A stretch of 64,000 bases of DNA from an uncultured Rivularia sp. (GCA_963665115.1 OY762007.1:768001-832000); one strand, 5' to 3'. Counted from the first letter of the stretch, positions 7,478 to 15,648 are shown. Made by a program: numbers and translations. The notes: a model not told the origin generated them from the letters alone.

Positions 7478-7633
7478 TCAATGAGTTAGATAAGCAAGAC
7501 CAATTAAAACAGCCAACAGTCCAAAAGTAGTAAGTGCAAAATGCTTGAGCGAGGTGCCACCCTTTTGCACCATATTCCGCATTGCCAGTTTCGTATAGCT
7601 GGGTTTATCTTCCTTGGTAGAAGAGTCGTTCAT
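7478..7633 (-). CDS. small membrane protein (DUF3285-like)
   Basis: 'PSYTKLAMRNMVQKGGTSLKHFALT' plus C-terminal TM helix; lies between prfB and ybeY. Confidence 0.75.
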   Translation of the reverse strand: MNDSSTKEDKPSYTKLAMRNMVQKGGTSLKHFALTTFGLLAVLIGLAYLTH

Positions 7634-7853
7634 AAAAATTCCATAACAAACTCTTCTACCAATGTAACAACTTGTTGAGAAATGGAGCGCCAATTTGGCA
7701 TTTTTTAGAATTTGGGCATAGGGGATGGGGGATGGGACATTGTTAAATATTTAGGAGTTAGGAGTAGCAAGTAGAGAGTAGTGAATTAGTTTTATTTTCT
7801 GCCCATCTCCCCCTCTCTCCAATGCCCAATCCCCATTACCCATTTCCAATTCC

Positions 7854-8973
7854 CTATTCCCCATTCTCCGTTACTTGGTTTTCCTGTCGCAGATAGGCTT
7901 GAATGAAGGAATCTAGTTCTCCATCCATCACGTCTGTTATGGCTGTTGTTTCGATGTTGGTACGCAAGTCTTTTACCATCTGGTAAGGATGGAATACATA
8001 GTTACGTATTTGATTTCCCCAACTTGCTTCCACCATATCACCGCGAATTTCAGCGACTTCTTGGGCGTGTTGTTCTTGAGCCACAACCAACAGCTTTGCT
8101 TTGAGACGAGCAAGGGCTTTTTCTTTGTTTTGCAGTTGCGATCGCTCTTCGGTACATCGCACTGCAATACTTGTGGGCAAGTGAACAATTCGGACTGCCG
8201 TTTCTACTTTGTTGACGTTTTGTCCGCCTTTACCGCCTGCCCTGGATGTAGTAATTTCTAAATCCTTATCGGGAATATCCAATTCTACATTGCCGTCTAT
8301 CTCAGGCATGACTTCTACGCCAGCAAAACTGGTTTGTCGCTTACCGTTAGCGTTGAAAGGAGAAATTCTAACTAACCGATGGGTACCCATTTCCGAACGC
8401 AAATACCCGTAGGCATAGCGCCCGGTAATTTCTAGAGTTACCGATTTTATACCAGCTTCATCTCCATCCGATTTATCGCTTATTGCAACCTTATAACCGT
8501 GACTTTCTCCCCAGCGCGTATACATTCGCAGCATCATTTCCGCCCAATCTTGAGCGTCAGTACCGCCAGCACCGGCTGTTATTGTTAGAGAAGCGCCTTT
8601 GCTATCGTAAGGGCCAGAAAGTAACTGCTGTAACTCCCACTGGTCGAGTTCGCGGCTGAGACTTGTAACGTTAGATACAGCTTCATTCAGTAGCGACTCG
8701 TCGGTATCGGACTCTAAAAGTTCGACAACTGCGCGGGTATCTTCTAAGCTAGAATGCCAGTTATGATACTGTTGCAGATAAGATTTAAGTTCGTTAAGCT
8801 CTTGCAGGGTATCTTGAGCTTGATTTTGATCTTCCCAAAATTCCGGCTGTGCTGCAATTTGTTCTAAATCTTGAATTTTAGCTTTGAGTGCGGGTAAGTC
8901 AAAGATAGTCCTGAGTTTTACCCAGGCGATTAGATAACGTTTCGATTTCCCGTTTGATCTCTAGAACTTCCAT
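7854..8973 (-). CDS. prfB: peptide chain release factor 2, programmed +1 frameshift (join 8902..8973 and 7854..8900; ~372 aa)
   Basis: [24 protein letters not shown] then CTT-TGA-C, continuing +1 as DLPALKA; GAGG, RISPF and GGQ motifs intact. Confidence 0.97.
8898..8912 (-). promoter_or_regulatory. prfB +1 frameshift cassette (AGGAC TAT CTT TGA C)
   Basis: Canonical CUU-UGA-C slippery site with an AGG SD-like element upstream. Confidence 0.93.
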
Positions 8974-9117: not shown

Positions 9118-9187
9118 GGTGCGTGACGGCAATTTCAATTTATCGGGCTATGCTTTGATAATTTATCGTAGCCGTCACGCACCCTAC
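9118..9187 (-). repeat. GTAG-type REP hairpin (GTAG-GGTGCGTGACGGC...GCCGTCACGCACC); further copies at 10363-10431 and 11592-11654
   Basis: 13-bp perfect inverted repeat, ~40-nt AT-rich loop, 5' GTAG on the minus strand; three copies bracket the RF2 paralogs. Confidence 0.8.
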
Positions 9188-10264
9188 AATTTGAGATAAG
9201 CTTTGGTGAACAAATCAAGGTTTCCTTTCATCACTTCTTCAATGTCAGTTGTTTCTACGTTGGTACGTAAATCTTTAACTTTTTGGTAAGGATGAAAGAT
9301 GTATTCGCGGATTGGGTTATTATCTACATTTTTGGATGATGGTTTTTTGACATCTGTAAGTGCAACACCTTGAGCTTGCATTAATGAAAATAGCTTACTT
9401 TTAACAACAGCTAAGGCTTTTTCCTTATTAAGCAATTGAGAACGTTTATCTCTAGAAGTGAAGGAAATACCAGTAGGAATATGAGTTACTTTCACTAATA
9501 CGCTTCTGCGGTTACTGTTAGGGTTGCTAGGCTGTACATAAAATTCCAAATCCTGTATCGGAATTTCAAATACCGATTCATCTATAATCGGCGTAACTTC
9601 CACCTTTGCAAAACTAGTTTTAATAGCAGCCTTTTTACAAAAAGGTGAAATTCGTTTCAGTTGATGAATTCCTTGCTCGGATTTGAGATATCCATAAGCA
9701 TACTTACCGAAAATTTCTAAAGTCACATAGTTAAAGCCAACCAATTCTCCTATCGACTCGTCCAAAAACCGGAGTTTGCAGTCATGGCGATCGCACCAAT
9801 CATCGTACATTTGTAGCAACATATGTACCCAATCTTGGGAATCTAGATCGTTATTACCAGCAGTAATAGTAATAAAAGCTCCTTTATCATCAAAAGGCTG
9901 ATTCAGCAGGCTGATGATTTCAACGTGTTTGAGTTGGCTGCTTAAGAAATCATAGTTAGTTTGCAATTCTTGCTGTAACTGCTCGTCAGCTTCAGATTCC
10001 AAAAGTTCTAAAGCTGCTTTGGCATTATTCAAACAAGTTCGCAATTCTTGATATTTTTCTTGTTCGTAGAATATCAAATAGGTTAATTCTTGAAGGGAGT
10101 TATGAGCAATTACGGTATCTTGCCAAAATTCAGGTTTTATAAGTAGCTTTTCTAGATCCCTTACTCTTGCACTTATTTTATGGATGTCAAAGACAGTGTT
10201 GAGGTTGGCTGAGGAACTTAGATAATGTTTCGATTTCGCGTTTTACTTTTGATAGTGCCAGCAT
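9184..10264 (-). CDS. RF2 paralog lacking GGQ, +1 frameshift at CTT-TGA-C (join 10190..10264 and 9184..10188; ~359 aa)
   Basis: [25 protein letters not shown], then +1 frame DIHKISARVRDLEK..PEFWQD runs open into the 9184..10077 ORF; RISPF present; GGQ loop replaced by VQPSNPNSNRRS. Confidence 0.85.
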
Positions 10265-10433
10265 ATTTTTCTCTTGTTGAGACACGTTAAATGAATTGTA
10301 GTACAAAAATGGGGATTGGTGATAGGGAATTGGGCATTGGGGATTGGGGATTAATAACAGGTGGTGCGTGACGGCAATTTCAATTTATTTCGTTATGTTT
10401 GATAATTTATTAGAGCCGTCACACACCCTACAA

Positions 10434-11514
10434 TTAGAAAGCTTGTTTGAGATACGCTTTGGTAAACAAATCTAAGTTTCCTTTCATCACTTCTTCAATG
10501 TCAGTTGTTTCTACGTCGGTACGTAAATCTTTAACTTTTTGGTAAGGATGAAAGATATATTCGCGGATTGGGTTATTATCTACATTTTTGGATGATGGTT
10601 TTTTGACATCTGTAAGTGCAACACCTTGAGCTTGCATTAATGAAAATAGCTTGCTTTTAACAACAGCTAAGGCTTTTTCCTTATTTTGCAATTGGGAACG
10701 TTTTTCTTTAGAAGTAAAGGAAATACCAGTAGGTATATGTGACATGGTTGCCCAAAAGTATCTTCCGTATGGACACACTTCACTGATTACTTCTAAATCT
10801 TTCATTGGAATCTCAAAATCCATCGACTCATCCACAATCGGGATAACTTCTACATCTGCAAAGCTGGTTTGAATTCTAGAATCTTCACTAAATGGTGAAA
10901 TTTGTCTTAATTGATGAATTCCTTGCTCGGATTTGAGATATCCATAAGCATACTTACCGAAAATTTCTAAAGTCACATAGTTAAAGCCACCCATTTCTCC
11001 TATCGACTCATCCACAAGCCGCGATTTGCAGTCATGGCTTTCACTCCAATGACAATACATCCGTAGCAGCATTTGCACCCAGCATTGAGAATCTGCATCA
11101 TTATTAACAGCAGTAATAGTAATGAAAGCTCCTTTATCATCAAAAGGCTGATTCAGAAGATTAAGAATCTCAACGTGTTTGAGTTCGTTGCTTAAGAAAT
11201 TGAAGTTGACTAGTAATTCTTGTTCTAACTGCTCGTCTGCTTCTGACTCCAGAAGTTCTAAAGCTGCTTGGATATTACCTAAACGAGTTTGCCATTCTTG
11301 ATATTGTTCTTGCTCGCAGAATATCAAATAGATTAATTCTTGAAGGGAGTTATGAGCAATTACGGTATTTTGCCAAAATTCAGGTTTAATAAGTAGCTTT
11401 TCTATATCCCGAATTTTTGTATTTAGTTGATGGATGCTAAAGACAGTCTTGAGGTTGGTTAAGGAACTTAGATAATGTTTCGATTTCGCGTTTTATTCCC
11501 AATATTTCTAACAT
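10434..11514 (-). CDS. second RF2 paralog lacking GGQ, +1 frameshift at CTT-TAG-C (join 11440..11514 and 10434..11438; ~359 aa)
   Basis: [25 protein letters not shown](TAG), then +1 frame SIHQLNTKIRDIEK..PEFWQN runs open into the 10434..11327 ORF; QISPF present; GGQ loop replaced by SEVCPYGRYFW. Confidence 0.83.
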
Positions 11515-11808
11515 GATTTTTCCTCGTTAGGTCACATTACATAAATAGTAGTACAAAAATGGGGATTGGGGATGGGGAATTAATAAAAGATGATGCGTGA
11601 CGGCAATTTCAATTTATTTCGTTATGTTTGATAATTAATCGTAGCCGTCACACAACGGCAATAACGCGGGAGGAATATCCACACCGCGTTTTGCCTCCCC
11701 TACAAATAAATTACTTTTTCAGTGACAGGAAAAGGGGATAGGGGGATGAGGAGAAATATTTAAAATTCTTAACTCATAACTCCTCACTCCTAACTCCTAA
11801 CTAATTTC

Positions 11809-12543
11809 TTAGTCTCTTCCGCCGCCGCTAATGGCAATCAATAGACGTAAGATGAAGATGAATAAGTTGATGTAGGTAAGGTACATCGATAAAGCTGCGG
11901 GTAAATATTCGTCATCTTTATAGGTACGGGGTAGTACGTAGAAGTCAACTACCGCAGCACCAACAAACAACAATACACCTAAGCCAGAAATACCGATTTC
12001 CAACCATCCAGGGGTATATACGCCAAATAAGGAAAGTCCTAATTGAATAACTAAAACTGCAACTAAGGCTATTACACCCAAACGAACAGTTTTTGCTAAA
12101 GCCATACCGTCAGTATCAGAAAGGTTAGAACCAATCTGACGAGCGGCGATAAAGGTTATTCCACAACCAAGGGCGGCGATACCAATACCCTCAATGCCTA
12201 CTCCTTGGGTTCTCAACGCTACAAATACTAATCCGCTAAGGGTGTAGCCAGATAAGAGACTGTAGGCTGCTAACAGTGGTAATGCAACTTGCTTATTACC
12301 TTTAGAAGCTACATTTTGAGCAACAAAAAACAAAATTAGTTCTACGATTATCGCGCCAATCAAGGTAGGGAAAAATAGTTCGGGATGATTGCGGATTACT
12401 CCTAACCCACCATAAGTTCCCAAAGCAGTAAGTACTAATCCACCACCTACGTAAGGAAGTGCATTAGCAATTACGTTTGGCCCTACCAGTGCTTGATTTT
12501 TAGCGTCGCGAATGGCGTTTCGGAAATTGCTCGTATTACTCAT
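11809..12543 (-). CDS. Bax inhibitor-1 (BI-1/YccA) family membrane protein
   Basis: ~7 TM helices; C-terminal 'AALSMYLTYINLFIFILRLL'. Confidence 0.88.
   Translation of the reverse strand: MSNTSNFRNAIRDAKNQALVGPNVIANALPYVGGGLVLTALGTYGGLGVIRNHPELFFPTLIGAIIVELILFFVAQNVASKGNKQVALPLLAAYSLLSGYTLSGLVFVALRTQGVGIEGIGIAALGCGITFIAARQIGSNLSDTDGMALAKTVRLGVIALVAVLVIQLGLSLFGVYTPGWLEIGISGLGVLLFVGAAVVDFYVLPRTYKDDEYLPAALSMYLTYINLFIFILRLLIAISGGGRD

Positions 12544-13984: not shown

Positions 13985-15648
<1,664 letters not shown>

Follow-up and report, generated by a model that had tools for sequence, protein, structure and literature searches.

GGQ-less RF2 copies in many filamentous cyanobacteria as likely rationed, variable termination blockers

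What use might a cyanobacterium have for release factor genes that have lost the catalytic motif of a release factor? The question is raised by a 64,000-nucleotide (nt) stretch of DNA of an uncultured Rivularia sp. (GCA_963665115.1 OY762007.1:768001-832000), hereafter the window, in which all coordinates given below are positions. On its minus strand, a gene of the Bax1-I/YccA family is followed by two tandem genes that resemble the gene for release factor 2 (RF2), here called B and A, and then by the canonical RF2 gene, prfB. Judged from their sequences, A and B are old paralogs belonging to one RF2 family that lacks GGQ, and we propose that such dead RF2 copies, present in many filamentous cyanobacteria, are likely to be rationed, variable blockers of termination. 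The features on which the argument turns are as follows.

Paralog A, 9184..10264, minus strand: GGQ-less RF2-like gene for 359 amino acids (aa), with 25 codons before and 334 after a predicted +1 shift.
Paralog B, 10434..11514, minus strand: GGQ-less RF2-like gene; 25 + 334 codons, 359 aa.
Shift site of A, 10186..10192, minus strand: CTT TGA C, with no internal Shine-Dalgarno (SD)-like element.
Shift site of B, 11436..11442, minus strand: CTT TAG C, the stop being the RF1-specific UAG.
Alpha5 tip, A 9841..9861 (AGNNDLD) and B 11091-11111, minus strand.
SPF and post-SPF loop, A 9619..9648 and B 10869-10898, minus strand.
Former GGQ loop of A, 9496..9537, minus strand: an exchangeable cassette.
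Former GGQ loop of B, 10752..10787, minus strand: a different cassette, nearest to the loop in locus L251.
Core of 27 codons common to A and B, A 9658..9738 and B 10908-10988, minus strand: converted, from A type to B.
Homogenised C-terminal third including the switch loop, A 9187..9483 and B 10437-10739, minus strand: silent distance 0.13-0.16, versus 0.29-0.37 in the N-terminal parts.
Canonical prfB (RF2), 7854..8973, minus strand: CTT TGA C at 8904-8898; SPF, GGQ and the switch-loop Trp present.

Two RF2-like genes and their frameshift gate

Genes A and B start at an ATG (10264 and 11514, respectively), followed by 25 codons homologous to the prfB leader and then by CTT and a stop codon, past which the RF2-like frame goes on at +1; the preliminary description of this DNA had drawn them too short, leaving out these starts and the +1 shift that is required. 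A start at the called TTG was rejected, because the 62 codons upstream of it are under purifying selection. Both products contain the PCRF and RF-1 Pfam domains and are about 45% identical to that of the adjoining prfB. The prfB model TIGR00020 (cutoff 370 bits) gave 266 bits for A and 257 for B, scored on the 297-aa called open reading frames (ORFs) only, and 479 for the 348-aa prfB frame. An AlphaFold2 model of post-shift A shows the RF2 fold (mean predicted local distance difference test score, pLDDT, 94.6) and matches free E. coli RF2 (1gqe) with a TM score of 0.81, the alignment behind the model being rich in true RF2 sequences and its compact shape uninformative on dynamics. Genome-wide, tblastn returned prfB, A and B as the only RF2-like copies, together with RF1 and one short weak match. 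An assembly artefact is not supported: short-read contigs from sequencing runs X1-X3 have zero differences in both variable loops, and the X2 contig also matches the UAG site; these runs may be the source sample, so that the match serves as an assembly check only, and no single contig covers the whole array.

For the distribution of the family, a profile built from 8 intact paralogs was run at a threshold of E<=1e-138 against 389 genomes of the cyanobacterial family, broken copies below the threshold going uncounted. It matched 115 genomes, in one of which (G073) the match at that threshold is a plain RF2, which leaves 114 genomes in 9 of 68 genera. Named records place the paralogs among Nostoc, Amazonocrinis and Microcoleus; less closely related proteins occur in Coleofasciculus and Oscillatoria princeps. 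In a search of the whole order the score could not split distant paralogs from RF2; 29 genomes with extra matches were followed, so that, outside the family, the range given is a minimum. At most loci examined the gene lies directly upstream of prfB, the exceptions having an insertion between the two or lying on another contig. A distant paralog with a TAA shift site in genome G265 (L269) lies on a contig other than that of prfB, with no prfB in the 7.5 kb examined. The analyses below use 117 full-length copies, or 116 without the duplicate L168, after 18 partial alignments (by a full-length filter) and genomes G627, G632 and G643 had been left out before counting. Together, the full-length copies form one clade against cyanobacterial RF2 (FastTree support 1.0).

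GGQ is absent from A, from B and from 114 of the 116 copies, 3 of those 114 keeping xGQN; in the other two, L205 and L244, both lying upstream of prfB, the GGQ loop is full-length but differs from the one in prfB and is accompanied by an HRV-type SPF loop, and their products may be active alternative release factors. The residues of the codon-reading head are kept in most copies (S in 108, P in 107, F in 71 and the downstream T, which we take to be the third-base reader, in 105 of 116), SPF being intact in A and B, and the acidic residue of helix alpha5 is kept in 105 of 116. The switch-loop Trp, the stacking partner of A1492 in termination complexes (PMC5378476), occurs in 0 of 116 paralogs versus 162 of 163 RF2 sequences. 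Both glycines of the alpha5 tip, which shape the first-base pocket (PMC3418547), are invariant in 163/163 RF2 sequences and variable in the paralogs, with N or D in A and B. At the position aligned with Gln181, the third-base determinant in RF1 (PMC6821328), all 163 RF2 sequences have Val, and the paralogs have Q (40), E (25), K (16), V (13) or R (8), with K in A and R in B.

At the frameshift site, CTT is the sole invariant column (116/116) among 45 conserved four-fold columns, for which the median share of the top codon is 0.64, and the codon after it is a stop in 116 of 116 copies: TGA in 97, TAG in 15 and TAA in 4. A 3' C follows this stop in 116 of 117 copies, and the more distant copies L268, L269 and L272 also keep CTTT with TAA or TGA. 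Among the RF2 genes compared, TGA stands at the shift site in 163 of 163, and a survey of >12,000 genomes reports TAG in 0 of 8,164 prfB shift motifs, which was taken to support RF2 autoregulation (Prince et al., PMC12421855). In the paralogs, by contrast, the UAG gate occurs in the window genus, in Microcoleus and in two Nostoc-type copies, hence in at least three lineages; the UGA of A is read by RF2, the UAG of B is not. CUU before UAG was an efficient shift site in substitution tests in E. coli (PMC5009743). Maintenance of the site by conversion from prfB was rejected, as CTT is preceded by TGT in 116 of 117 paralogs and by TAT in nearly all prfB, and the UAG and UAA variants are absent from prfB.

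A ribosome that read through the gate in frame 0 would reach another stop 2 codons later in A and 15 codons later in B. Most TGA copies elsewhere still have an SD-like stimulator (mean -3.65 kcal/mol), which A and B have lost, the duplex with the anti-SD amounting to +1.6 kcal/mol in A, -0.5 in B and -4.0 in prfB, so that weak shifting is predicted for both window genes. The ratio of nonsynonymous to synonymous rates (dN/dS) in the pre-shift codons is 0.31, and 0.38-0.41 upstream of the called TTG start in the window genus; such purifying selection argues that the full-length shifted product is selected.

A second in-frame TGA, absent from A and B, interrupts YAYG-LK in 28 copies, 27 of them Nostoc-type (e.g. 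L133, L134, L171, L175). The next base is C in 26 of the 27 clade members, 6 copies from different parts of the cassette tree have TGG there instead, and the 51 linked codons after it have a dN/dS of 0.31 (likelihood ratio test, LRT, 52). The pattern is as expected for read-through as Trp; other stops, found in 3 of 27 carriers and in 1 of 44 sense copies, count against read-through.

Loops, scaffold and the exchange of alleles

The preliminary description had placed the divergence between A and B in the loops that contact the ribosome, on a near-identical scaffold. Every motif that it quoted was found in the sequence, and its claim held for the C-terminus, a core segment and two of the loops. 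From HIPTG to the end, the last 98 codons, A and B share 280 of 294 nt (95%) and 94 of 98 aa, and in the core GFNYV..HQL they agree in all 27 aa and in 79 of 81 nt. The heptapeptide after SPF is sharply different, with 1 of 7 aa and 12 of 21 nt in common, as is the former GGQ loop, with 2 of 20 aligned positions and 17 of 51 nt. The claim did not hold for the alpha5 tip, the switch loop and the rest of the scaffold. The alpha5 tip, while different from that of prfB, agrees between A and B in 5 of 7 aa and 17 of 21 nt, as against 84% of nt over the post-shift gene. Domain 1 is identical in 73 of 100 aa, and helix alpha5 with the next strand in 21 of 34. The switch loop, which likewise touches the decoding centre (PMC5378476), is identical at 25 of 25 positions between A and B and at 3 of 25 to prfB. 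Divergence between A and B is thus not confined to the ribosome-contacting loops, one of which is identical.

Selection was estimated by region with our own GY94-type fits, using fixed branch lengths and treating stops as missing. IQ-TREE gave a dN/dS of 0.372 over the 117 copies; the ratio for prfB is 0.056. The scaffold has dN 0.26 and dS 0.98 (ratio 0.26; domain 1, 0.42), and the three loops dN 0.63 and dS 1.44 (ratio 0.44), the value also reached by domain 1, helix alpha5 and the switch loop together. Each of 11 regions lies at 0.24-0.54, all significantly below 1, and no region is significantly above 1 on global or local trees. Local trees gave 0.32-0.68 for the loops, only the alpha5 tip in the 71-member Nostoc-type clade being not significantly below 1, and within the window genus alone the loops gave 0.20-0.43; estimates for the former GGQ loop are weaker, since it aligns poorly. 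A site grid put 6 of 360 sites at a posterior >0.9 for dN>dS, one of them the shift codon and only one inside the three loops (1 of 42 loop sites). The loops are therefore two to three times faster than the scaffold at the amino-acid level, mostly still constrained, and without excess over the silent rate. Of the explanations offered earlier, diversifying selection in the sense of dN/dS>1 found no support in the regions or in the site-wise check, and positive selection on the loops was discarded as a candidate. Plain relaxed constraint fails for the loops as wholes (LRT 19-108, full set) and is adequate for the narrowest tips in the Nostoc-type clade, whose ratios of 0.96 and 1.04 fit neutrality (0.51 and 0.69 over all copies).

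Gene conversion, also proposed earlier, was borne out and could be polarised for one segment: in columns 174-199 the silent distance of B is 0.00 to A-type copies and 0.25 to its own ortholog in genome G744. The silent distance between A and B is 0.36 before HIPTG and 0.13 after it; taken by themselves, A and B show only a marginal clustering of silent differences (run-length p=0.04, longest run p=0.22, Fisher p=0.066), and the firm evidence of mosaicism comes from the relatives, not from the A-B pair. Across 71 Nostoc-type copies third-position linkage falls with distance (r2 from 0.142 to 0.028, p=0.0005), as against no decay in prfB of 70 of the same genomes (p=0.53); in the window genus the decay has p=0.0005 for 16 paralog copies versus 0.086 for 11 prfB. 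Segment distances from the alpha5 tip to DLEI, the decoding block, correlate internally at 0.52-0.79. The GGQ loop is decoupled from this block (0.13-0.25) and goes with domain 3 (0.47), and the C-terminus alone tracks prfB (0.57). Three decoding types combine with several former-GGQ types. Since silent divergence is higher in the decoding block (0.30-0.48) than in the C-terminus (0.21), the alleles are older than their background.

Within the window genus, UGA copies group by their N-terminal segments in a single clade (support 0.945). The N-terminal silent distance is 0.29 between A and B and 0.04-0.05 between each and its own G744 ortholog, which makes the duplication older than these species, and the order B(UAG)-A(UGA)-prfB recurs in G744 and G723. 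The 5' parts of both genes, in A two thirds of the gene, are 96-100% identical to G744 in nt, whereas the 100-nt bins with the former GGQ loops are 69% (A) and 55% (B) identical. Relative to the window, the long and short loop types sit in the opposite copies in G744, G723 and L095. Run X4 differs from the window by 7 letters in ~1,280 over prfB, and by 31 substitutions and 6 gaps in the 109 nt (9440-9548) of the domain-3 cassette of A. Single-copy genomes such as L265 and L249 resemble B-A or A-B hybrids. By sequence comparison the loops behave as old alleles exchanged by recombination, even between near-identical strains, and the main mechanism is that entire old loop alleles pass from copy to copy and from strain to strain; the earlier interpretation, sound as to conversion, had missed this exchange as well as the retained frameshift gate with its UAG variant.

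Over window 11100-11700, compared with L188, the 5' part of B and the DNA upstream are 96-100% identical to G744, and prfB 90-97%. This suggests a recent transfer of that segment, upstream DNA included, between the species of the window and G744.

What the paralogs may do

An RF2 fold with four domains, loss of GGQ and of the switch Trp, purifying selection on the scaffold, an invariant CTT-T-stop and exchange in two blocks can all be read from the genes themselves. On these grounds we favour, tentatively and at a little less than an even chance, the reading that A and B are rationed, non-catalytic blockers of the ribosomal A site with swappable specificity. Full-length protein would be made only via the +1 frameshift, presumably at a low level owing to the loss of the stimulatory SD in the window genus, and, if RF2 biology is a guide, synthesis would rise when termination is slow, for A at UGA under a shortage of RF2 and for B at UAG under a shortage of RF1. 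The later steps are more conjectural. By its retained S-P and T the protein might dock on stop or near-stop codons, the choice of codon or context might be tuned at the variable alpha5 tip, at the third-base position and in the residues after SPF, and the substitute loop might meet the peptidyl-transferase centre without hydrolysis. It is established that GGQ mutants bind but do not hydrolyse, and PDB titles list such complexes; GGQ mutants are also dominantly toxic. With the A site held by a reading head without GGQ, termination would be blocked or delayed and the peptide would stay unreleased. RF2 variants with loosened third-base reading are toxic (PMC7530605), which fits tight rationing of the paralog. 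More speculatively, allele diversity and two tandem alleles could be kept because the target varies, for example in conflict with phages, toxins or termination-disturbing agents.

Several points weigh against the A-site blocker. Without the SD stimulator, expression of A and B may be very low. Stable A-site binding may have been lost, given that the alpha5 glycines are N or D in A and B and that the switch Trp, which stabilises the open form, is gone; this leaves room for an off-ribosome, decoy or Pelota-like role. The neutral-like narrowest tips in the Nostoc-type clade are what is expected if the loops are simply unused. In the window genus a non-KK post-SPF loop accompanies 7 of 9 UAG copies versus 1 of 7 UGA copies, but this link is not independent evidence, as both traits descend from two ancestral paralogs. 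Other internal stops occur in 9 of 116 full-length copies, and several genomes hold fragments. Anti-phage defence profiles (PADLOC) returned 0 families for A, B and the upstream gene, none of 29 pattern matches in viral contigs was confirmed and no relative was found there, and the fixed position beside prfB offers no tie to defence.

A broader version of the blocker reading, possible but rather doubtful, would see in the family a modular translation-conflict system made from a dead release factor. A stop-codon sensor (RF2 for UGA, RF1 for UAG, both for UAA) would be joined to two independently exchanged specificity cassettes, the codon-reading head and the peptidyl-transferase loop, and, on subversion of termination, would halt ribosomes at selected stop codons or in selected contexts, with a parallel in a dead RF1 of another family. 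Type I restriction offers an analogy, as its hsdS genes have conserved flanks and target-recognition cassettes exchanged by recombination; hsdS has no sequence relation to the paralogs, whose loops may carry specificity.

Among the rival explanations, we consider it unlikely that the proteins moonlight like PrfB3, the RF2 fold binding RNA or another partner off the ribosome, with the three loops largely freed and recombination between tandem copies reshuffling neutral variation. There is a precedent in plant PrfB3, which lacks SPF and GGQ and stabilises petB RNA (PMC5897788); the tip dN/dS of ~1 in one clade and the lost alpha5 glycines and switch Trp would fit, and near-identical tandem flanks favour conversion without selection. 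However, S, P and T in the head that reads the codon have each been retained in >90% of copies, purifying selection acts on the loops as wholes, no copy has lost the stop codon of the gate, and deep alleles persist across species.

Slightly less likely is a decoy, in which a toxin, phage protein or peptide that inhibits a release factor would slow termination and so increase shifting, and the resulting harmless mimic would absorb the inhibitor, its altered loops keeping it off the ribosome or matching different inhibitors. The gate would make a natural sensor of release-factor inhibition, although an RF2-shaped mimic behind a UAG (RF1) gate fits poorly. A scaffold conserved (0.26) while ribosome-engaging residues changed would suit a mimic, and allele exchange with patchy presence fits conflict; against this, S and T of the reading head have been preserved.

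Pelota, which has no GGQ, acts together with Hbs1. We think it quite improbable that the family plays the part of Pelota/Dom34 in bacteria; its proteins would then, on failure of termination, mark or protect stalled ribosomes or assist in splitting them, without catalysis, and its 2 GGQ-intact alleles would be true alternative release factors. Housekeeping rescue of this kind predicts stable loops and wide retention, whereas ~70% of the genomes of the cyanobacterial family are without a match at the threshold and the loops are swapped. Domain 1, on the other hand, is kept (0.42), induction by failed termination is predicted, the full GGQ loop in 2 of 116 alleles and xGQN in 3 would find a place, and non-catalytic release-factor paralogs, including the inactive baeRF1 families, have been proposed to act at the A site, albeit with the unrelated aeRF1 fold (PMC6514570).

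Finally, slow decay of prfB pseudogenes kept alike by gene conversion is very improbable, for despite internal stops (28 copies at one site, 9 with others), fragments and losses, dN/dS is significantly below 1 in all 11 regions (0.24-0.54), CTT and the stop are invariant, and conversion from prfB does not maintain the site.

Surroundings and relation to known systems

Beyond the two paralogs and prfB, the array includes the following features.

Hairpin repeat, 9118..9183, minus strand, directly 3' of the A stop: 13-bp stem, ~40-nt loop, -31 to -21 kcal/mol.
Further copies of the hairpin repeat, ~10360-10427 after B and ~11590-11655 after the upstream Bax1-I gene.
Bax1-I/YccA-family membrane protein gene, 11809..12543, minus strand: the usual upstream neighbour of the paralog.

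The hairpin repeat is dispersed, with 16 near-full-length matches in the genome; standing behind each gene of the array, it may have been a duplication seed or may protect mRNA. The genes 3' of prfB we take to be ybeY, dgkA and a trpG-like gene. Between prfB and ybeY there is a small ORF (window ~7540-7710, minus strand) whose product of ~55 aa is hydrophobic at its C-terminus. Two overlapping ORFs (14890-15642 and 13985-14995) make up what is presumably, going by its motifs, a phosphoglucomutase-like gene at window 13985-15642, also on the minus strand; the split suggests either a frameshift or an error of assembly.

The paralogs are like RF2 in fold, in their four domains, in the SPF of both window copies and in a CTT-T-stop-C site at codon 25-26. 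They differ from it in the missing GGQ and switch Trp, in the altered alpha5 tip, in a dN/dS of 0.37 versus 0.056, in a gate whose stop can be UAG (15/116 versus 0/8,164, PMC12421855), in the SD lost in the window genus, and in being dispensable and recombining. Without GGQ, A and B were rejected as functional RF2. Plant plastid PrfB3 (mtRF2b) is also an RF2 duplicate without GGQ (PMC5897788, PMC3472500), but it has lost SPF as well, is reported in those accounts only from land plants as a plastid RF2 duplicate, and binds petB RNA. The cyanobacterial family differs from it in its features: it is bacterial, keeps S-P and T, is frameshift-gated and is polymorphic. A and B keep SPF, and PrfB3, with both motifs lost, was therefore rejected as their identity. 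PrfH and ArfB are likewise extra class I release factor homologs in bacteria, but they are shorter and keep the catalytic Gln (PMC6514570). PrfH is a short release factor with GGQ beside rtcB, whereas A and B are full-length, lack GGQ and have the Bax1-I gene and prfB as neighbours. With scores of 37 (A) and 31 bits (B) against TIGR03072 (cutoff 167 bits), no ArfB match and no GGQ, both assignments were rejected.

GGQ-less RF1 paralogs also exist in a second cyanobacterial family, where a search of 39 genomes yielded 3 with a full-length copy (L286:3581-4666 in G460, L285 in G449 and L287 in G270), two of the copies lying directly downstream of prfA, and a fragment in G414. Their alpha5 tip, PxT and GGQ loop are altered, and they have no frameshift; they are a convergent case. 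The C-terminus of the L286 paralog is nearly identical to that of its own prfA, a likeness that suggests conversion with prfA.

Proteins of the RF2 family described here go in databases by the names 'PCRF domain-containing protein' or 'peptide chain release factor 2'. In the literature searched, subscription papers being mostly outside its scope, we met with no account of a bacterial family of full-length RF2 without GGQ, and passages of the release-factor surveys PMC6514570 and PMC3472500 do not mention one. Dead release-factor paralogs are already known from plastids and from the aeRF1 family. Where a prfB-type site carries UAG in a gene whose product has ceased to be RF2, a natural frameshift that senses RF1 is predicted, and a UAG-gated shift combined with exchangeable loops would surprise the specialist and is easy to test. 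On one scaffold, the family amounts to a natural library of altered decoding heads and of catalytic loops ranging from an intact GGQ to none, with which the rules of stop-codon reading can be tested. If these proteins do block termination on demand, they would represent a new way for bacteria to control translation.

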